Source: a virus
DNA length: 39,427 bases
IMG/VR virus record: IMGVR_UViG_3300045988_156365
Reading direction: 5' to 3' (one strand)
Shown here: positions 2,359 through 39,427 of the stretch, in pieces
How the letters are laid out: each line of letters begins with the position of its first letter
How positions within the stretch are numbered: position 1 is the first letter of the stretch
Notes under the pieces: generated by a model
The model's database searches: none
What the model was told of the DNA's origin: nothing
What the model saw: only the letters and a program-made list of their open reading frames with translations
Position numbers and translations under genes: made by a program

Positions 2359-3213
2359 CTATACAGGGCGGCTGGCGCCAAGGATGCGCTCAAACACAGC
2401 CCGCTCTTCGTCCGAGAGACCTCCTGCCCCTGTTGTCTTTCCTTGCTTTTCATTTTTCCACACTCGATTTTGTTTCTGCGATATTGCGAACTCAAAAATG
2501 CGTTTCCAGTCTATCGTCTTTCCCCTTCCCTTTTTCTTGTGCAGCCATCCAGCCTCCGTCGCCCAATACTCCTTGCATGCCTTTTCGAGGGTGAGAGAGA
2601 CGTCGACCCCCGGATTGAAGCGCTCCCTTTCCGCCATCCACTCCTTGTCCTGCGTCCATCTGCACCATGCTTCCCGGCATGATTGCAGGTAAACGTCGAA
2701 GCTATCGCGCCATGTCACCTCTTGGGCTGTCTCGATTTTTTCGCGCGCGCTTTTTTTGTTTTTACCAGCAATAGAAATATTCTCTGTTACTATCTCGGCA
2801 TCTTCGAGTACGTTAGTACGAGAAGATATAATACTACCAGTATCAGTATCAGTATCAGTATCAGTATCAAGGTTCGTCTGGGTTTTGTTGGGTTTTGTTG
2901 GGTTTTGTTGGGTTTTTCTGGGTTCCCAAAATAACCCACTGGGTTTTTCTGGGTTTTTTGTGGATTTAGGACGTCCGCCTTTTTTGCCGTTATTCCTATT
3001 CCTCTCAACCACAGCGTCGTACCTCTTGTTGTTTTCGTCTATGTATGGCTTGGTAAGGTCGAATATCATAGCCACCACTACCGAATCTCCGCTATACTCC
3101 TCTCCGTCGAATCCATATCGCATGATCGCATCCAGCACCTCCCCTTTTTCGGTCATCGAAAGACGGTTGGTCGCTGTAAGCAGACTTCGAGGTATTACCA
3201 TGGATTCTTTCAT
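2359..3213 (-). CDS. putative replication organiser/initiator (DUF6291/DUF4373-like N-terminal domain)
   Basis: N-terminus ...LSMTEKGEVLDAIMRYGFDGEE...NKRYDAVVERNRNNGKKGGRPK resembles the DUF6291 architecture as recalled from memory. A low-complexity linker (DTDTDTDTDT, NPTKPNKTQ) is followed by a W-rich C-terminal domain. Confidence 0.5.
   Translation of the reverse strand: MKESMVIPRSLLTATNRLSMTEKGEVLDAIMRYGFDGEEYSGDSVVVAMIFDLTKPYIDENNKRYDAVVERNRNNGKKGGRPKSTKNPEKPSGLFWEPRKTQQNPTKPNKTQTNLDTDTDTDTDTGSIISSRTNVLEDAEIVTENISIAGKNKKSAREKIETAQEVTWRDSFDVYLQSCREAWCRWTQDKEWMAERERFNPGVDVSLTLEKACKEYWATEAGWLHKKKGRGKTIDWKRIFEFAISQKQNRVWKNEKQGKTTGAGGLSDEERAVFERILGASRPV
2838..2869. repeat. hexanucleotide tandem repeat (CAGTAT)x5
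   Basis: Read directly. It encodes (DT)5 on the minus strand, within the linker of the replication protein gene. Confidence 0.95.
2880..2960. repeat. 10-bp periodic iteron-like array (GGGTTTTGTT x3 plus degenerate GGGTTTTTCT / GGGTTTTTTG copies)
   Basis: Three perfect head-to-tail copies at 2880-2909. Related copies start at 2910, 2941 and 2951. Confidence 0.85.
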
Positions 3214-3278: not shown

Positions 3279-3350
3279 AAGTTGCATTTTGCCCCTGCCC
3301 GAGCATTCACACCGCAAATATAAACAAATTTTTCCATTCTCCAAAAAAAA

Positions 3351-7601: not shown

Positions 7602-8074
7602 TGTTTTTTGGTTTTTAAATATTCGACAAATTCGGCGTCGTGCCGTCTCTCTTCGATGCGGTTGTATTCCCTCCACCGCTCCAAATCTTCGGGGCTTGAA
7701 TCCTTTGTGATAGGCTGCGGCATAATCTTTTCCCTCTCTTCGTATGGCATCAAACTAAATCCGGGGAAAGGTCGCAGGGGTTTGTGCAACGAAATTTTAT
7801 CGTTGTCCCCGTCGGTTGGGTATATAAACATATAATCCTTGCCGTCTTTGATGCCAAAACAAAGGCCCGTTATCCTTTTGCATCCTGTTTCATCCGTGAA
7901 AAGCGAATACACGACCGACGGCTTGGCTCCTGTTTTTTGCAATATCTTTGCAAGGTGTGACAATACGGTTTCCTCCATCAATTTGTATTCCGGCGGAATG
8001 CCGTATTTTTTGGCTTGTTTAGGGGTCAGCCATTTGTATTTACCCTCTACTCCTTCTTTGTAAAGCGTTGCCAT
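7598..8074 (-). CDS. hypothetical protein; paralog of the N-terminal half of 6756..7601
   Basis: 158 aa with GIKDGKDYMFIYP and ITKDSSPEDLERWREYNRIEERR. Confidence 0.7.
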   Translation of the reverse strand: MATLYKEGVEGKYKWLTPKQAKKYGIPPEYKLMEETVLSHLAKILQKTGAKPSVVYSLFTDETGCKRITGLCFGIKDGKDYMFIYPTDGDNDKISLHKPLRPFPGFSLMPYEEREKIMPQPITKDSSPEDLERWREYNRIEERRHDAEFVEYLKTKKQ

Positions 8075-8181
8075 ATTATTAGGTTTTTAGTGTAAACTAT
8101 TGTCGGGGTGAAAAGCCTGCGTGTGTCGTCGGGAATATAAATCCCGTTTTCGATGTTGTTTTTCATGGCGTATACTGTGTG

Positions 8182-8292
8182 TTAAAATGCGTTGTTCTGA
8201 AGGTGCAGGAGGACGACCGCCGCAAAGGCGGCCATTCCTGCCAGCACTGCCGCCCATAGGGCGAGTAGCTGCCTTACTCGATTTTTATCCAT
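8182..8292 (-). CDS. possible 36-aa single-pass membrane peptide
   Basis: Internal ATG of track ORF 8182..8364: MDKNRVRQLLALWAAVLAGMAAFAAVVLLHLQNNAF. The longer form would overlap the upstream gene by 90 nt. Confidence 0.4.
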   Translation of the reverse strand: MDKNRVRQLLALWAAVLAGMAAFAAVVLLHLQNNAF

Positions 8293-8531
8293 ATCCGCAA
8301 ATCCTGTTCCTGTATTTGGATGGTTATCACGCCTTCCCTGAGGGCCGTACTTACGCCGAGGCATCGGCGTACTGCGATCTCTTCGATAGCCCTCAAGGCC
8401 TCGTAGCTATACTTCACGTACGCCCCGATCTCCTGCGTCTCGCGGAAAATATGTATCGCGCTTATCGTGTCCTGGGGCATCTCCTGGGTAAAGGCGTACG
8501 CCCTTTCTGCCAGTTCGTTCATTGTTTTCAT
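8274..8531 (-). CDS. hypothetical protein
   Basis: 85-aa ORF with an ATG start. Confidence 0.6.
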   Translation of the reverse strand: MKTMNELAERAYAFTQEMPQDTISAIHIFRETQEIGAYVKYSYEALRAIEEIAVRRCLGVSTALREGVITIQIQEQDLRIWIKIE

Positions 8532-8585
8532 AATTAATTGATTTTTAATTTGATATAATTGTTATGTCCGCTGTCATTCGTGGGC

Positions 8586-9032
8586 TTATGCCTTGTATAC
8601 TGTCAGCGCCGCACCCCGAAGCAGTCGCCATGCCTGATTTAGTGCCCGCCCTTGTACCTGAATCCATGTTTCGATCCGGGTCGGCGGCATAATCATTCCC
8701 GATCGGCTCGTTTTACGCTTCATCTCCGAGGGACTACACAAGCGTTTGGCTATGTCCGCGCTGCACACGAGCGAGCAACCTCCCTCGCTGTATGCCATCC
8801 AGTTCTCAGCACCCAGCAGCAAAGTAGTTTCGATAAATCGCGGCGTATAACCCCCTGTTTCCTTCGCGTAATCCAGCATTTTGGAATAGTCGCCGAGGAT
8901 GTCCAGCGCATACAGTTTTACACCATTGTCCCAAGCGGAACGGAACCGGGTATTCTCGATCTCTTCCCTGATGCGGGCTACTTGGGTGTCGGTAAGGGCA
9001 ACGCCCGAGGTAGTGAAATTAACGTGTGTCAT
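8586..9032 (-). CDS. hypothetical protein, paralog A of an early-gene pair
   Basis: 148 aa. RSAWDNGVKLYALDIL, LLLGAENWMAYSEGGCSLVCSADIAKRLCSPSEMKR and ETWIQVQGRALNQAWRLL match 9654..10070 block for block. Confidence 0.7.
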   Translation of the reverse strand: MTHVNFTTSGVALTDTQVARIREEIENTRFRSAWDNGVKLYALDILGDYSKMLDYAKETGGYTPRFIETTLLLGAENWMAYSEGGCSLVCSADIAKRLCSPSEMKRKTSRSGMIMPPTRIETWIQVQGRALNQAWRLLRGAALTVYKA

Positions 9033-9053
9033 GACTTTCGGGGTTTTTTGTGT

Positions 9054-9230
9054 TTATAAACTGCATTCGTGTATTTCTATCCCGCCGAGTGCTGAAACTT
9101 CGACAATATAGCCCGTGTTCGTTTGGTGCACTGCTTCCACACGTAACGTAAAGCGGAACAGAAGCCAGCAGGAAAAGGCAGTGAGCACCACCAGCGCGGC
9201 GGCCTTTATGGTATTGTTAGTGCTTTTCAT
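9054..9230 (-). CDS. 58-aa single-pass membrane protein (below ORF-track cutoff)
   Basis: Hand translation gives MKSTNNTIKAAALVVLTAFSCWLLFRFTLRVEAVHQTNTGYIVEVSALGGIEIHECSL*. It fills an otherwise empty gap in the operon. Confidence 0.5.
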   Translation of the reverse strand: MKSTNNTIKAAALVVLTAFSCWLLFRFTLRVEAVHQTNTGYIVEVSALGGIEIHECSL

Positions 9231-9474
9231 GGTTCGAGTATATTATATTAAGTATGAATAATGCCCAATCTATCGAGCGGCGCGCCTCTTCTTCACTGAT
9301 ATAGTAGCAATTAAATTCGTCATAAAGGTTACCATTTTTTGCCCTTTCCCGAATTGTATTTCGTTCTTCTTCGCTGTTGCATAGTATTTCAACGGGTCGC
9401 GGCTCGTGGTAGTCTGAGAGCCGCACGCCGTATACCTGAACGGCATACAATGTAAGTTTATAATTCTGATTCAT
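9217..9474 (-). CDS. hypothetical protein
   Basis: 85-aa ORF with an ATG start. Confidence 0.6.
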   Translation of the reverse strand: MNQNYKLTLYAVQVYGVRLSDYHEPRPVEILCNSEEERNTIRERAKNGNLYDEFNCYYISEEEARRSIDWALFILNIIYSNHEKH

Positions 9475-9488
9475 TATTTCCGGGGTTA

Positions 9489-9641
9489 TTATGCTATATA
9501 ATCGTGCGCGTATCCTATCAGCCTCCAGTTAGACCCATCGAACCAAATGCAGCGGTAAATTGTAGCAAGTTTCACGGGGTGCACCTCGTAGGCGCAATAT
9601 ATTGCCCATAATTCACGGGCGGCCTCTTTTCTTGTTTTCAT
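9489..9641 (-). CDS. 50-aa hypothetical protein (below ORF-track cutoff)
   Basis: Hand translation gives MKTRKEAARELWAIYCAYEVHPVKLATIYRCIWFDGSNWRLIGYAHDYIA*. It fills the gap between 9474 and 9654. Confidence 0.45.
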   Translation of the reverse strand: MKTRKEAARELWAIYCAYEVHPVKLATIYRCIWFDGSNWRLIGYAHDYIA

Positions 9642-9653
9642 GGCTTTCGGGGG

Positions 9654-10070
9654 TTAGCAAATACAAGACATTAACATTCTATACGCCTGGAAATACGCGC
9701 GGGCCTGCACGTCCTGCCAGCCCTCCCGATCGTTGGGGGCTTTGTTGCCGTTGTCGGTGCGTTTTAACTCCGAGGGAGTGCAGAGGTTTTTTGCTATATC
9801 CCCGTCGTAGATCAGCGCGCCCCCGCCATAACAATAGGCGTTCCAGTCGTCCGCACCGTTTAATAATGTTTCTTCATTGAGTTCCGGAATTGGTCGGCCG
9901 TTGTTATCGCAATACTCGCAAATGTCTATGTAGCTTCTCAGCAGATTGAGCGCAAAACCTTTCACGCCTCGATCCCAGCACGACCGCGTTTTAACGGCTT
10001 CCAGACGTGCCCGGATTTCATTTACTTCGTTCTTCCAGTTGGTGGAGTTGTTCGTTTGGTTCTTTTTCAT
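9654..10070 (-). CDS. hypothetical protein, paralog B of the early-gene pair; first gene of the leftward arm
   Basis: Start moved to ATG 10070 (MKKNQTNNSTNW...), which lies downstream of the predicted promoter. Contains RSCWDRGVKGFALNLL, LLNGADDWNAYCYGGGALIYDGDIAKNLCTPSELKR and EGWQDVQARAYFQAYRML. Confidence 0.7.
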   Translation of the reverse strand: MKKNQTNNSTNWKNEVNEIRARLEAVKTRSCWDRGVKGFALNLLRSYIDICEYCDNNGRPIPELNEETLLNGADDWNAYCYGGGALIYDGDIAKNLCTPSELKRTDNGNKAPNDREGWQDVQARAYFQAYRMLMSCIC

Positions 10071-10134
10071 GGCTTTAAATGTTTGTCTCATTAACTTCGA
10101 AGGGTGTGATACCTGCTCCTCCCTTTCTCTATTA

Positions 10135-10166
10135 CAAAGATAGTATAAGATTTTATACCACGCAAG
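10135..10166 (-). promoter_or_regulatory. leftward Bacteroides-type promoter (-33 cTTG, 20-bp spacer, -7 TAtcTTTG)
   Basis: Minus-sense CTTG at 10166..10163 and TATCTTTG at 10142..10135, about 65 nt upstream of ATG 10070. Confidence 0.55.
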
Positions 10167-10286
10167 CATTTCACAAACTTTCTTCATCGTTTGTTCTTAT
10201 GCAAAACAAACATACCATAAGTTTTTACCATCCGAAAGCCTGCCAGTCTGAGACCTCCGCAACCCGCTTCACCCAGACCCAACGAT

Positions 10287-10314
10287 CACGCACGCACACG
10301 CACACGCACACACA
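10287..10314. repeat. CACG/CA microsatellite (cacgcacgcacacgcacacgcacacaca)
   Basis: Read directly in the intergenic spacer. Confidence 0.9.
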
Positions 10315-10417
10315 ACGGGTTCCGATTACATTCACAAAAACTCGGGAGTTTGCTATGAGTACACCCCCTTATATATTATTCTTATCATTCATATACATTA
10401 AGAACGTGTATAGTCGC

Positions 10418-10892
10418 AGGGAGGGGCATTTTGGGGGTGTTTTGAGTGTGTGGTGAAAGAGGATAGTTTTGGTCTGTTTGGCCGGGTGGGGAGGAGGAGG
10501 GGCGGATGCTGGAGGAAGGAGGAGAGAGGAGGCGGGCCGGGGGAGGGCGCCGGGGAGCGGGAAGGGGTGGAGGGGAGGCGGAGGAGTGGGAGCAAAGGAG
10601 GAAGCGAGAGGACGGGGCGGGAAGTGGAGGCCGGGCGAAGTGGGAAGGCGCGCAGCCTGAGCGAGCGGAACAACGTGGAGCGAGCGAAGGAAGGAGACAG
10701 CCACCGGGAAGGGGTGCGGGTCTTTGGTCAACAGCCGCCCGGGGTCTGGAGCCTTTCTAACACTCGAGATATTCGCGGGCTGGGTTTCTTGTGGTTTGGG
10801 CAGTGGGGTGGGGTACGGGTCTTTGGATTTTCGGGGGTATGTTTTGTGGGGGTTTTGGTTATTGAGGTGGGGGGGGGCTTGGATTTGGACGG
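10418..10892 (+). other. G-dominated polypurine, G-quadruplex-dense non-coding region between the divergent promoters
   Basis: In 10481-10620 I count 89 G, 16 C and 5 T out of 140 nt. There are dozens of GGG/GGGG runs, for example GGGCCGGGGGAGGGCGCCGGGGAGCGGGAAGGGGTGGAGGGGAGG. All six frames are open only because stop codons are compositionally excluded. Confidence 0.8.
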
Positions 10893-10915
10893 TAAAGATA
10901 TTATTACTATATTTG
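10884..10915 (+). promoter_or_regulatory. rightward Bacteroides-type promoter (-33 TTTG, 20-bp spacer, -7 TAtaTTTG)
   Basis: TTTG at 10884-10887 and TATATTTG at 10908-10915, 33 nt upstream of ATG 10949. Confidence 0.6.
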
Positions 10916-10948
10916 TACAATGATTATAAACTCATAATAGAATTCGGT

Positions 10949-11158
10949 ATGGAGGTAAAGAAAAGTGTTACTACGCATGTAGGGGCTAAAGCCGCTTGTC
11001 ATTTTGAGGCAGAGCTTAAAGGGGATCGCCTGGTCTCCTTTATAGGCATTTGCGTGAAAGGCGAGGGGCACTGTATTTGTGAGATGAGCTTCGAAGATAT
11101 AGTTAAGCTTCGGGATGCTCTGGATACGGCTATCGGTTTCGGTCATGGGCGTAATTAA
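10949..11158 (+). CDS. small hypothetical protein (69 aa)
   Basis: Internal ATG (MEVKKSVTTH...) of track ORF 10724..11158. The upstream part of that ORF lies in the G-rich region and upstream of the promoter. Confidence 0.6.
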   Translation: MEVKKSVTTHVGAKAACHFEAELKGDRLVSFIGICVKGEGHCICEMSFEDIVKLRDALDTAIGFGHGRN

Positions 11159-34210: not shown

Positions 34211-34228
34211 TGTAGGTACGGACAAGAA

Positions 34229-34253
34229 AACAGGCGCTTTATCGGCGCCTGTT
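34229..34253. terminator. shared bidirectional hairpin where the two arms converge
   Basis: AACAGGCGC-tttatcg-GCGCCTGTT, with an A-run upstream and cttgttt downstream. Confidence 0.6.
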
Positions 34254-34343
34254 CTTGTTTGGCGGGTCTATCCCTCGCCCAGCGATCCCGAACACCAGCA
34301 TAATAATCCCGGCCACAAAGAAGAGTACGCACGCACTGCTCAT
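34239..34343 (-). CDS. 34-aa single-pass membrane peptide (below ORF-track cutoff)
   Basis: Hand translation gives MSSACVLFFVAGIIMLVFGIAGRGIDPPNKNRRR*. The ATG lies 2 nt after the stop of 34346..34888, and the stop lies in the terminator loop. Confidence 0.4.
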   Translation of the reverse strand: MSSACVLFFVAGIIMLVFGIAGRGIDPPNKNRRR

Positions 34344-36164: not shown

Positions 36165-36629
36165 TTAAAATTCAGGTATTCTCGGTATAGCGGGCGTCCA
36201 GTTGGATATGATTCCGTCGAAAAACAGAATCCAGTACCGAATCTCGCTCGTGATATTCAGCACGTCGTTCTCGGTGGTAGGGTCGAACACTTTTGCATCA
36301 ACCCCTCCATGAAGCATTGCGACGATTTCGTTTAGGTCGTCCCGCATTTCGCGCGCGATGGTCAGAGCATCGGGGATCGTAAGCGCCTCCTCGATCTGAG
36401 ACGAATCCACGAACTGCGTCATCGTATGCAGCGGAATGCCATCCAGCACGCGGATGGTCTCGGCCATCTTGTCGGCGCCTTTCCGGAGCGTGGCCGCAGT
36501 ATCGTCCAGCAGCAGGTGCAGGGATCGGAAGGGCGTGCCGTATACCATCCAATGACGCCCTTTGGCGTTCGAGTAGGCTACTTCGAGGGTGGCCAACAGC
36601 TCATTCAGAATAGAAGTCTGATTTTTCAT
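36165..36629 (-). CDS. dps: Dps-family ferritin-like protein
   Basis: ILNELLATLEVAYSNAKGRHWMVYGTPFRSLHLLLDDTAATLRKGADKMAETIRVLDGIP aligns with the Dps signature LN..lA......Y.k...fHW.V.G..F..LH..f.e......D..AErI..lGG.P. Ferroxidase H, H, D and E positions are all present. Confidence 0.8.
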   Translation of the reverse strand: MKNQTSILNELLATLEVAYSNAKGRHWMVYGTPFRSLHLLLDDTAATLRKGADKMAETIRVLDGIPLHTMTQFVDSSQIEEALTIPDALTIAREMRDDLNEIVAMLHGGVDAKVFDPTTENDVLNITSEIRYWILFFDGIISNWTPAIPRIPEF

Positions 36630-39098: not shown

Positions 39099-39427
39099 TA
39101 TATACCCTTTGTATTCCTCCATCTGCTCGAGACTATAGCCTTCGGCCTCGCCAATTTTTCGGAAATGCTTCTGCCATTCGGAAATGGTGTAGCGTTTGCA
39201 TCCTATTTGAATAACATCCTCACCCCAATAGGATACTGTATGACGAGATGCGCTGATAAATAGCGATTTCGGGACATCGCACCCGTCGCCCAGTTTGCAC
39301 CCGTCGCCCAGTTTGCACCCGTAGCCCAGTTTGCACCCGTCGCCCAGGTCGCACCCGTCGCCCAGTTTGCATCCGTCGCCCAGTTTGCACCCGTAGCCCA
39401 GTTTGCACCCGTCGCCCAGGTCGCACC
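39099..39427 (-). CDS. 3' part of the hexapeptide-repeat protein gene (continues from nt 1)
   Basis: In the KLGDGC frame, 8 repeat units are followed by [59 protein letters not shown]. The track ORF 39220..39426 (RRVQTG) is the wrong frame. The joined gene is ~146 aa with 9 repeats. Confidence 0.7.
39279..39427. repeat. 18-nt tandem repeat, 8.3 units, with a 72-nt higher-order period
   Basis: Units start at 39279, 39297, 39315, 39333, 39351, 39369, 39387 and 39405, with a partial unit at 39423. The variants (C/A at position 9, TTT/GTC at the end, one C>T) recur every fourth unit. Confidence 0.95.

Follow-up and report, generated by a model that had tools for sequence, protein, structure and literature searches.

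What is the function of a strongly strand-asymmetric tract from which both transcription arms of a phage genome diverge? The question arises at positions 10418-10892 of the window, that is, the whole stretch of 39,427 nucleotides analysed here, which represents the circular genome (39,386 bp) of an uncultured Bacteroidota phage from a human-gut group. An initial annotation had described this tract as a polypurine, G-quadruplex-dense spacer, with a bidirectional replication origin, an insulator, or a packaging or host-factor binding site as possible roles. We examined its composition, conservation, coding potential, promoters, and predicted RNA:DNA hybrid stability, and compared it with known systems.

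Layout and conservation of the gene-free module

The tract lies exactly where the two arms diverge, as the initial annotation had it, within a module of ~850 bp without genes (10093-10931) between the early-left and late-right operons. The convergence of the arms on a shared terminator was also confirmed; this is a bidirectional hairpin at ~34226-34260, assigned to no strand. The plus strand of the left spacer half (10167-10364, no strand) is G-poor and C+A-rich (G 0.15, C 0.32, GC skew -0.38), and the same polarity occurs in the relatives L057 to L061. It is followed by an AT-rich centre (10365-10405, no strand; 76% A+T, G 0.02), at which the cumulative G-C count is lowest and the strand asymmetry reverses. 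The layout, in which an AT-rich centre separates a G-poor left part from a C-poor right part, is kept in phages with 53-78% TerL identity, and the flip at the AT-rich centre is seen down to 53%. More distant relatives (TerL 39-44%) keep the gene-free spacer but have lost the asymmetry. The module is present in ~20 close relatives, and its occurrence in ~20 independent assemblies excludes an assembly artefact. This conservation, for which a check in relatives had been proposed at the outset, indicates that the module is very probably functional.

A 28-nt alternating purine-pyrimidine tract (10287-10314, no strand), a length-polymorphic CACGCA-type microsatellite, lies just left of 10418-10892 and midway between the promoters P_left and P_int described below. 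No longer run of this kind exists in the window, and by the sequence criterion applied (GC-containing, at least 12 nt) the tract is predicted to be Z-DNA-prone. Equivalents occur in the spacers of L057, L058, L060, and L183. Among six loci scanned, the longest Z-DNA-prone run of the whole locus fell in the spacer at four (window, L057, L058, and L060) and outside it at L059 and L061; the L183 tracts were seen separately, as this locus did not belong to the longest-run scan.

Strand composition and G-quadruplex potential

The base counts first given for 10481-10620 were exact: this 140-nt stretch holds 89 G, 16 C, and 5 T, together with 30 A, and no other 140-nt stretch of the window comes near it. 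The peak G fraction per 140 nt was 0.64, compared with a window mean of 0.25 (sd 0.05) and a best value elsewhere of 0.42, and runs of at least three G were found at 65 per kb in the tract versus 10 per kb outside. The entire 10418-10892 segment contains 238 G, 63 C, 84 A, and 90 T. The term polypurine is apt for G tract 1 (10478-10650, plus strand), which is 83% purine and forms a C-poor predicted non-template strand (G 0.62, C 0.12, T 0.05), but not for the whole 475 nt (68% purine); the segment at 10781-10883 (plus strand), just upstream of the late promoter, is G+T-rich (G 0.50, T 0.38, C 0.06) and varies among relatives through indels. G tract 1 itself changes fast in sequence and length (76% identity, 93-174 nt among close relatives), and its composition there is stable (G 0.55-0.64, C 0.11-0.18). 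In AT-rich relatives, the C-poor strand is G+U-rich, not purine-rich. In the window, cytosine deamination is unlikely to account for the asymmetry by itself, because G tract 1 is poor in T (5%) and not enriched in it. A CsrA-type GGA sponge or anti-SD decoy was set aside: GGAGG and GGAGGA are just ~2-fold above shuffles and are absent from AT-rich relatives.

Local G-quadruplex (G4) density, claimed initially, was reproduced. G4Hunter windows of at least 1.5 cluster at 10412-10895, canonical motifs (at least four G3+ runs, loops of 1-7 nt) lie at 10534-10575 and 10798-10819, and the spacers of L057 to L060 are likewise enriched for G4 potential. All of this would be expected if DNA or RNA G4s were the functional units, a reading that we nevertheless regard as very improbable. 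Shuffles of the sequence gave as many G3+ runs, G4+ runs, and canonical motifs and equally high G4Hunter scores, so that the density is real but fully explained by composition. Within 10478-10650 the G4 values were even below shuffle expectation (1 motif versus 2.3 expected), and a mononucleotide shuffle equalled or exceeded the observed mean G4Hunter score in 99.8% of trials. Close relatives carry 0-3 motifs each, 5 of 15 carry none, and no individual motif is conserved; L061 (33% GC) retains the asymmetry with zero G4 potential. The G4 as a selected feature is thus largely refuted, and the maintained property is strand composition rather than G4 motifs. Whatever the function of the tract, selection on strand composition (C avoidance) can yield dense G4 predictions as a by-product, and G4 scans of phages should therefore be judged against composition-matched shuffles and relatives.

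The suggested capacity for triplex H-DNA appears weak. H-DNA is defined by an uninterrupted homopurine mirror repeat, usually of at least 20 nt. Here the longest pure purine run, at 22 nt, lacks mirror symmetry, and the sole perfect mirror repeat is the 15-nt GGGGAGGAGGAGGGG; the triplex potential is therefore modest.

Coding and RNA-structure tests

The module is non-coding. In line with the earlier statement that the tract holds no believable gene, its ORFs gave no family match and no PHROG match, its length (413-514 nt among relatives) differs through indels that are not multiples of three, and the ATG at 10506 is absent from a second haplotype. Folding analysis (z = +2.64, covariation term +0.21) detected neither covariation nor Watson-Crick structure, and a search with Rfam covariance models returned zero matches. 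No tRNA or tmRNA was found, and Pfam, PHROGs, and NCBIfam recognised no regulators near the spacer. With respect to a prophage or host location, a conserved 25-mer had no match in genome_contigs.

A predicted internal promoter and the RNA that would be read from it

Both flanking promoters of the initial annotation are genuine Bacteroidetes-consensus matches, with -7 boxes (TAnnTTTG) at 10135-10142 on the minus strand and 10908-10915 on the plus strand. The early-arm promoter P_left (10135-10166, minus strand; -7 box TATCTTTG at 10142-10135, TTG 20 nt upstream) is invariant in close relatives, and P_right (10884-10915, plus strand; TTTG-N20-TATATTTG) serves the packaging, structural, and lysis arm. 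The annotation had taken the tract to be untranscribed, which is doubtful because a third, full-consensus promoter that it had missed points rightward into the tract. This promoter, P_int (10441-10471, plus strand), is predicted from a Bacteroidetes-type match, TTTG-N19-TAGTTTTG, with a predicted start at ~10478, and the G clusters begin ~6 nt past that start. The window contains three full-consensus matches versus 0.33 expected: P_int, one heading the late arm, and one heading the putative initiator gene. The AT-rich centre and P_int together show 95% identity among close relatives; 14 of 15 relatives share the P_int -7 box unchanged, and a deletion in L002 recreates it as TATTTTTG. In the spacers of L057, L058, and L061, no full-consensus internal promoter was found. 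Sigma-70-type matches in the AT-rich centre were set aside because the clear promoters of this phage are of the Bacteroidetes type. Judged from these sequence features, the tract is probably the G-rich, C-depleted non-template strand of a ~400-nt untranslated transcription unit that runs from P_int across 10478-10883, and it probably acts as untranslated RNA or as an RNA-DNA hybrid.

RNA of this composition could act on transcription. C-rich, G-poor, unstructured RNA loads Rho, whereas G-rich, C-poor RNA escapes it (PMC4496710, PMC12691595), and by reading direction the spacer is extreme in both senses. P_int and P_right may be tandem promoters of the 23-kb packaging, structural, and lysis arm, in which a C-poor, G-rich leader or regulatory RNA would prevent Rho termination and the conserved islands (the core and an AACAG-GC-rich motif) would act as control sites, such as those used in antitermination or by an activator. 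Such a leader, without any role in replication, is possible and in our estimation nearly as likely as the best guess presented below. It agrees with the tandem arrangement of the promoters, with sense-strand C avoidance that is conserved even where G4 potential and purine richness are lost, with the unstructured predicted RNA, and with the conserved islands, which lie on the late-arm side of the spacer in all relatives; the L058 spacer abuts a TerS-like gene, and the window spacer is 1.7 kb from its TerS-like gene. The L060 spacer holds three promoter-terminator mini-units, and small non-coding transcripts are therefore expected from it. By contrast, P_right is a perfect consensus already 25 nt from the first late gene, so that a second upstream promoter is not obviously needed. 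Moreover, no antiterminator, sigma, or NusG-like gene was recognised, and the leader leaves the G-poor mirror-image left half, the AT-rich centre, and the Z-DNA-prone tract unexplained.

Read in the opposite direction, the antisense of 10418-10892 is ~50% C and 13% G over 475 nt and has the composition of a rut site (at least 80 nt, C-rich, G-poor, unstructured), although typical rut sites span ~80 nt and are not conserved as 0.5-1 kb modules. The spacer might insulate the arms both topologically and transcriptionally: non-B-prone DNA (the Z-DNA tract, the AT-rich centre, and the G-rich/polypurine part) would absorb negative supercoils from the divergent promoters, and inward transcripts would be ideal for Rho loading and be terminated. 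The composition of the inward RNA, mirrored in the left half, the conserved polarity in relatives, and the Z-DNA-prone tract between divergent promoters in the window and four relatives are all consistent with an insulator. We find this role improbable, however, since it is not apparent what would drive transcription inward, ordinary divergent promoters work without a spacer of 0.8-1.5 kb, the triplex potential appears weak, and a check of intrinsic curvature found no consistent helical phasing or curvature signal in the T tracts.

RNA:DNA hybrid stability and a possible R-loop element

In the whole window, sequences meeting R-loop-forming criteria were found exclusively at 10419-10720 on the plus strand. 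The estimated 200-nt hybrid-minus-duplex energy sum was -1.6 kcal compared with a genome mean of +49.7 (z = -6.2), and windows with negative values start at 10444-10487 and nowhere else in the genome. By this estimate, the tract is the only site of the genome at which the predicted RNA:DNA hybrid is at least as stable as the duplex. Our best guess, offered tentatively and by analogy with the lactococcal phage c2 origin, is that the tract is an element at which transcription drives R-loop formation or DNA opening. The purine-rich, C-poor RNA made from P_int would give Rho no loading site and would tend to remain paired with the C-rich template as an R-loop. Opening would be aided by negative supercoiling between the divergent P_left and P_int and by the AT-rich centre and the Z-DNA-prone tract midway between them. 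Replication of the phage DNA could then be initiated or boosted from the opened or hybrid state, while an iteron origin in the initiator gene would operate in parallel.

In keeping with R-loop origins of the c2, ColE1, or CSB II type, a promoter (by consensus match) stands directly upstream of a non-coding segment, and the non-template strand is G-rich with a predicted hybrid at least as stable as the duplex. Several observations weigh against an R-loop origin. P_int is known as a consensus match only, and L057, L058, and L061 have no full-consensus counterpart. Hybrids would be much less favoured in the AT-rich relatives because their C-poor strand is G+U-rich, and the asymmetry disappears at TerL 39-44%. 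The genome-wide GC skew carries no origin signature, and the window spacer has no DnaA boxes. In addition, the iterons in the putative initiator genes of the window and L057 mean that a second origin is not needed.

A close parallel is found in ceduoviruses (c2-type), in which a non-coding region flanked by tandem promoters separates divergent early and late blocks and the non-coding transcript of the first promoter has been proposed to initiate replication (PMC7150918). Both systems have a gene-free region between early and late arms that diverge, and in both a pair of tandem promoters encloses neither an ORF nor an RBS. As in the present family, the c2 sequence varies among phage subgroups, while function is kept (PMC7150918). 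However, the c2 tandem promoters face the early genes, whereas P_int and P_right face the late arm; c2 origins have not been reported to be G-rich or strand-asymmetric; and c2 phages have no recognised iteron and initiator module, whereas the present phage has a putative one. The hosts also belong to different phyla, the promoters are of another type, there is zero sequence similarity, and the origin role here is predicted only.

In ColE1 RNA II and mitochondrial LSP-CSB II, a promoter is likewise closely followed by G clusters on the non-template strand, and a persistent RNA:DNA hybrid is the primer (PMC3488243, PMC6317783). Unlike CSB II, which is one short G block, and RNA II, which is folded over ~550 nt, the RNA predicted here is unstructured and purine-rich over 170-400 nt; the G4 itself is essential in CSB II, whereas the motifs here are neither conserved nor above composition. 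The lytic origins (oriLyt) of KSHV, EBV, and HCMV also lie between divergent units, depend on transcription, and combine an AT-rich segment with G-rich, G4- and R-loop-forming sequence (PMC10714766, 10.1101/2022.12.26.521964). These are eukaryotic viruses with dedicated origin-binding proteins, and the likeness is an analogy of layout only.

In a bolder form of the R-loop reading, which we consider rather unlikely, a polypurine RNA free of C and transcribed from a promoter would give a lasting R-loop resistant to RNase H, at which replication would have a second start that does not depend on the initiator. Selection on strand composition alone would maintain this start, which would be common to an entire family of gut Bacteroidota phages. 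With similar reserve, it might be regarded as the equivalent, in a prokaryotic virus, of mitochondrial CSB II, herpesvirus oriLyt, and the retroviral polypurine-tract primer. If the R-loop reading were true, the tract would offer a compact, sequence-defined model of transcription-primed DNA opening in abundant uncultured human-gut phages and a candidate host-factor-only origin useful for Bacteroidales vectors.

Classical origin candidates

Origins of the lambda type have iterons within the initiator gene O. The present phage and L057 similarly carry iteron arrays midway along a putative initiator gene, the ordinary place for an origin. In the window, the iteron-like array (2838-2975, minus strand) consists of seven copies of AAAACCCA and five of GATACT in the linker of a DUF6291 gene (2359-3213); the analogous array of L057 (1365-1576) lies beside a weak DnaC-like gene. 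Judged by sequence, these arrays are better candidates for a classical origin than the tract, and the location of the window array at ~2.9 kb, outside the tract, argues against the tract as the primary origin.

A classical bidirectional theta origin at 10.5 kb with a terminus at 34.2 kb, for which the initial annotation had proposed a GC-skew plot, is highly doubtful. Locally, both GC and AT skew flip around the AT-rich centre with origin-like polarity, this centre (10365-10405, 76% A+T) has the composition of an unwinding element, and DnaA-box-like sequences are enriched in the spacers of some relatives. However, both arms have negative GC skew on the plus strand, and no genome-wide switch occurs at 10.5 or 34.2 kb; an extremum at 34.2 kb is likewise absent, and an origin/terminus pair is therefore not indicated. 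The skew plot is featureless apart from a local jump that the tract itself produces. With up to one mismatch allowed, no DnaA box occurs in the window spacer, and the relatives are inconsistent in this respect; the repeats of the window spacer are two-copy only, with no array of at least three iterons, and the iterons sit elsewhere. Furthermore, the spacer architecture persists while the initiator modules swap among DUF6291, Lin1244_N, a non-homologous 302-aa protein, and DNA polymerase A (L184).

Conserved core, repeats, and contig ends

Between G tract 1 and the G+T-rich segment lies a conserved core (10651-10780, plus strand) with 95% identity among close relatives, higher than that of the flanking genes (85-90%). 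On the plus strand it contains two copies of GAGCGAGCG (10659-10670 and 10678-10689, 19 nt apart), GGGTCTTTGGTCAACAGCCGCCCGGGG (10718-10744), and GGAGCCTTTCTAACAC (10749-10764), and the core motifs recur in L057, L058, L059, L060, L061, and L183. A 22-nt direct repeat, GGG(A/G)(A/T)GGGGT(G/A)CGGGTCTTTGG, is present in two plus-strand copies 99 bp apart (10706-10727 and 10805-10826). The AACAG-GC-rich motif is kept down to 44% TerL identity and lies 0.1-2.2 kb upstream of TerS-like and TerL genes. Matches to the degenerate pattern GCGAGCG-N9-GGAGCGAGCGA were confined to this phage family in viral contigs, and GC-rich genomes gave chance matches alone.

The direct repeats, the high identity of the core, and the persistence of the AACAG-GC-rich motif near terminase genes would suit a protein-binding platform, that is, a pac site recognised by terminase or a site for another phage or host DNA-binding protein, in which the islands and repeats were functional and the G tract a mere spacer. 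We give this platform only a small chance. The region in the window is ~2 kb from TerS and TerL, with five genes between, and the conserved strand asymmetry would be unexplained. Contig ends in the tract do not appear to mark a physical terminus either. Eleven public contigs, among those with mapped ends, end within the spacer at 10368-10935; these ends are scattered and four carry Nextera adapter read-through, so that they are technical breaks, which speaks against a physical genome end at the tract. Whatever the function of the tract, short-read assemblies of this phage family systematically break at it, and these phages are therefore fragmented in public viral catalogues.

Organization of the phage genome

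The first and last 41 nt of the window are identical, and from this overlap the genome is a circle of 39,386 bp. The circle is broken inside an 18-bp tandem repeat (GCACCCGTCGCCCAGTTT, about 9 copies; window 39279–39427 and 1–55), which encodes (K/D)LG(D/Y)GC hexapeptides in a 160-aa protein on the minus strand (153 through the numbering origin to 39057). The left arm extends on the minus strand from 10073 leftward, past the numbering origin, as far as ~34.3 kb and contains genes for a RecE/YqaJ exonuclease, RecT, an HNH endonuclease, a DUF6291 protein, a methyltransferase, and a Dps/ferritin-like protein. The last of these (36165–36629, minus strand) matches Pfam Ferritin (5e-12) and a PHROG described as "DNA binding protein", and its gene is found in the related locus L183 too. 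The right arm (10949–34210, plus strand) contains TerS-like, TerL, head, tail, holin, and tail fibre genes, and the arms meet, as the initial annotation had stated, at a shared terminator, a hairpin at about 34226–34260. Each arm is headed by a Bacteroidetes-type promoter (−33 TTTG, −7 TAnnTTTG; consensus from PMC6847099 and PMC3090145), and Shine-Dalgarno sequences are absent from the phage's genes. The nearest named relatives by TerL are Bacteroidota phages and one Alistipes putredinis record; there are no cultured relatives, and two GenBank human-faecal contigs (MT835567 and MT837081) are ~90% identical to the window.

The first early genes (9654–10073 and 8586–9032, minus strand) are paralogues with 44% identity over 123 aa and have no family match. 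Relatives carry ArdA, DUF7249, or DUF8033 genes at the same position, so the paralogues may be early anti-defence genes. On the other side of the spacer, the first right-arm gene (10949–11158, plus strand; 69 aa) is shared by the window and L008 alone, and in the other close relatives the rightward promoter is followed directly by a 75-aa gene (11145 in the window); the 69-aa gene is a small insertion/deletion gene adjoining the spacer.

Composition of the spacer and an internal promoter

A recount in the G-rich tract (10418–10892) returned exactly the base counts first reported for 10481–10620 (89 G, 16 C, and 5 T). The G fraction is 0.64 in its richest 140 nt, against 0.25 on average over the window and 0.42 in the next-best stretch. 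From left to right, the spacer consists of the leftward promoter P_left (10135–10166), a left half with G 0.15 and C 0.32 (10167–10364), an AT-rich centre with G 0.02 (10365–10405), the zone of an internal promoter, P_int (10406–10477), G tract 1 with G 0.62, C 0.12, T 0.05, and 83% purine (10478–10650), a core of mixed composition (10651–10780), a G+T tract with G 0.50, T 0.38, and C 0.06 (10781–10883), and the rightward promoter P_right (10884–10915). The cumulative G-minus-C curve has its minimum at 10396, so the strand asymmetry flips at the AT-rich centre.

The pattern TTTG-N18–22-TAnnTTTG has three full matches in the window (0.33 expected), located upstream of the DUF6291 gene, at P_right, and at P_int (10441–10471, plus strand). 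The last lies inside the tract and was overlooked in the initial annotation, which had considered only the two flanking promoters and judged that neither appeared to transcribe the tract. P_int is a promoter predicted from its match to the consensus; its predicted start is at ~10478, and the first G cluster follows some 6 nt downstream. Its −7 box is unchanged in 14 of 15 relatives, a relative with a 37-nt deletion re-forms the box as TATTTTTG, and the −33 TTTG is retained in 11. The spacer of L060, a more distant relative, contains three tandem mini-units (2200–2550), each with a TTTG-N18–20-TAnnTTTG promoter followed 60–80 nt later by a hairpin and T-run terminator; these putative small RNAs have no Rfam match.

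Stop codons are rare in the tract, and ORFs therefore cross it on both strands, but these have no family match, in agreement with the earlier view that it holds no believable gene. Across 15 distinct versions of the segment, two invariant anchors lie 413–514 nt apart, with length differences mostly not in multiples of three, and the only ATG-initiated ORF lacks its ATG in the second haplotype; these findings rule out a protein-coding tract. A folded RNA is likewise ruled out, because the sense RNA folds worse than 100 of 100 shuffles (z = +2.64), the segment alignment has no covariation, and Rfam returned nothing at gathering or relaxed thresholds for the window and relatives alike.

Conservation of the spacer in related phages

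The initial annotation had suggested looking for the region in relatives, and the module proved to be conserved both in close relatives and in phages further away that share the architecture. It was found in about 20 independent assemblies, which rules out an assembly artefact, and 10093–10931 is inherited as a unit even beside a different left neighbour gene. Among 11 close relatives, identity is ~95% in each of three segments (the AT-rich centre together with P_int, the core, and P_right) and 85–90% in the flanking genes. It is lowest, at 76%, in G tract 1, where 16% of the alignment columns contain indels, two haplotypes occur, and deletions of about 80 nt are tolerated. The composition of that tract is nevertheless stable (G 0.55–0.64, C 0.11–0.18, T 0.03–0.09).

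In L057, L059, L058, L060, and L061 (TerL identity 78%, 71%, 65%, 58%, and 53%, respectively), the spacer is gene-free, 0.8–1.5 kb long, and of the same polarity, with a G-poor left part, an AT-rich centre, and a C-poor right part in each. These loci share the short islands GCGAGCG-N9-GGAGCGAGCGA, (T/A)(C/A)AACAG with a GC-rich block, and a TA..TA..TCC segment. A composite motif, (T/A)(C/A)AACAG + GC-rich block + T-rich + TA..TA..TCC…ATAT, lies upstream of the late/packaging arm (window 10718–10764; L057 8018–8065; L059 2400–2460; L060 2035–2095; L061 6465–6525; L058 9330–9385; L183 8675–8740) and is retained down to a TerL identity of 44%. Its role could lie in control of the late promoter or in recognition by the terminase. 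That the tract as a whole is a packaging or other protein-binding platform seems rather improbable to us. L183 (TerL 44%) and L184 (39%) still have a gene-free spacer of 1.1–1.9 kb between divergent arms (7702–8828 and 7864–9785, respectively), in which the strand asymmetry is absent and no Rfam match was found.

Structural potential of the tract

The tract had been described as dense in G-quadruplexes (G4s). Plus-strand G4Hunter hits of ≥1.5 do cluster at 10412–10895, but G3+ runs, G4+ runs, canonical motifs, and G4Hunter scores in 10478–10883 equal those of mononucleotide and dinucleotide shuffles. The most G-rich part falls below its shuffles (1 motif versus 2.3 expected), 99.8% of which reach the observed mean G4Hunter score. 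Nor are the motifs conserved: close relatives have 0–3 canonical motifs, with none in 5 of 15. The G4 potential of the spacer drops as genome GC content drops, and L061 (33% GC) has zero G4 potential yet a large G-over-C excess, which points to strand composition as the target of selection, chiefly in that C is avoided on the sense strand of rightward transcription. At a genome GC content of 53%, such avoidance makes G runs inevitable. The quadruplexes are a by-product of strand composition, and a G4-specific element is very unlikely. The triplex (H-DNA) potential also claimed for the tract is modest.

The longest alternating purine–pyrimidine run of the window (28 nt, 10287–10314) lies inside the spacer, halfway from the −33 element of P_left (10166) to that of P_int (10441), and is a length-polymorphic microsatellite. 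GC-rich alternating runs in the spacers of L057, L058, and L060 are the longest of each locus, and L183 also has such runs. A topological or Rho insulator, one conceivable role for the spacer, appears improbable. All matches to an R-loop-forming rule (a G-cluster initiation zone, then ≥40% G) lie at 10419–10720 on the plus strand. When hybrid-minus-duplex stability was summed over 200-nt windows on both strands with dinucleotide energies after the R-looper model, the only non-positive sums started at 10444–10487 (z = −6.2).

Possible function of the spacer

The proposed origin at the tract, with a terminus near 34.2 kb, found no counterpart in the GC skew, which is negative on the plus strand in both arms and has nothing at 34.2 kb; the sole feature of the cumulative curve is a local jump from the tract itself. 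AT skew switches at both points, tracking the coding strand, and DnaA boxes are absent from the window spacer and inconsistent in other spacers. A classical bidirectional origin at the tract is accordingly given very little weight. The DUF6291 gene (2359–3213), which has its own full-consensus promoter (3315–3345), contains an iteron-like array in its inter-domain linker (2838–2975, minus strand; AAAACCCA ×7, one inverted copy, then GATACT ×5), which is likely a lambda-O-type origin. L057 has about 11 copies of ACGTCCGAC (1365–1576) within a 302-aa gene that is non-homologous to the DUF6291 gene and adjoins a weak IstB/DnaC-like gene; this array also looks like a lambda-O-type origin. The layout of the spacer outlasts exchanges of these replication modules, and so the spacer does not depend on any one initiator.

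Any explanation has to cover a conserved gene-free module, an outward-facing P_int, a composition that is conserved where the sequence is not, asymmetry mirrored about an AT-rich centre, a Z-DNA-prone run lying between divergent promoters, and sequence-specific islands on the late-arm side. None of the papers retrieved describes this element. Among described systems, the nearest is the origin of lactococcal c2-type phages. That origin is non-coding, separates the divergent early and late blocks, and is flanked by tandem promoters; its untranslated transcript is proposed to start replication, and it sustains plasmid replication in the absence of phage proteins (PMC7150918). G-rich, transcription-dependent hybrids prime replication in ColE1 and mitochondria (PMC3488243, PMC6317783) and occur at herpesvirus oriLyt (PMC10714766, 10.1101/2022.12.26.521964). 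On the strength of these likenesses, we tentatively rank first the possibility that transcription drives R-loop formation or DNA opening at the tract, which would thereby have a role in replication. Nearly as likely, the tract could be a Rho-proof untranslated leader or regulatory RNA of the late operon, which accounts for the avoidance of C equally well. In kind, the spacer is best classed with the non-coding control or origin regions, possibly dependent on transcription, that separate divergent phage operons, and its distinguishing feature is the extreme, family-wide strand asymmetry.

Contig ends within the spacer

Both GenBank relatives lose similarity at or in the tract: MT835567 terminates in it (query 10854), and MT837081 continues past 10401 for only about 264 nt, which do not match. 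Among the IMG/VR contigs with mapped ends, 11 end inside the spacer, scattered over 10368–10935, and four of these run directly into Nextera adapter. The scatter and the adapter read-through point to short-read coverage loss over extreme G content rather than to a genome terminus in the spacer. In contigs L011, L042, L046, and L055, the first 15–65 nt are untrimmed adapter (…GTCTCGTGGGCTCGGAGATGTGTATAAGAGACAG) fused to spacer sequence, and these ends are contaminated as a result of the coverage loss.
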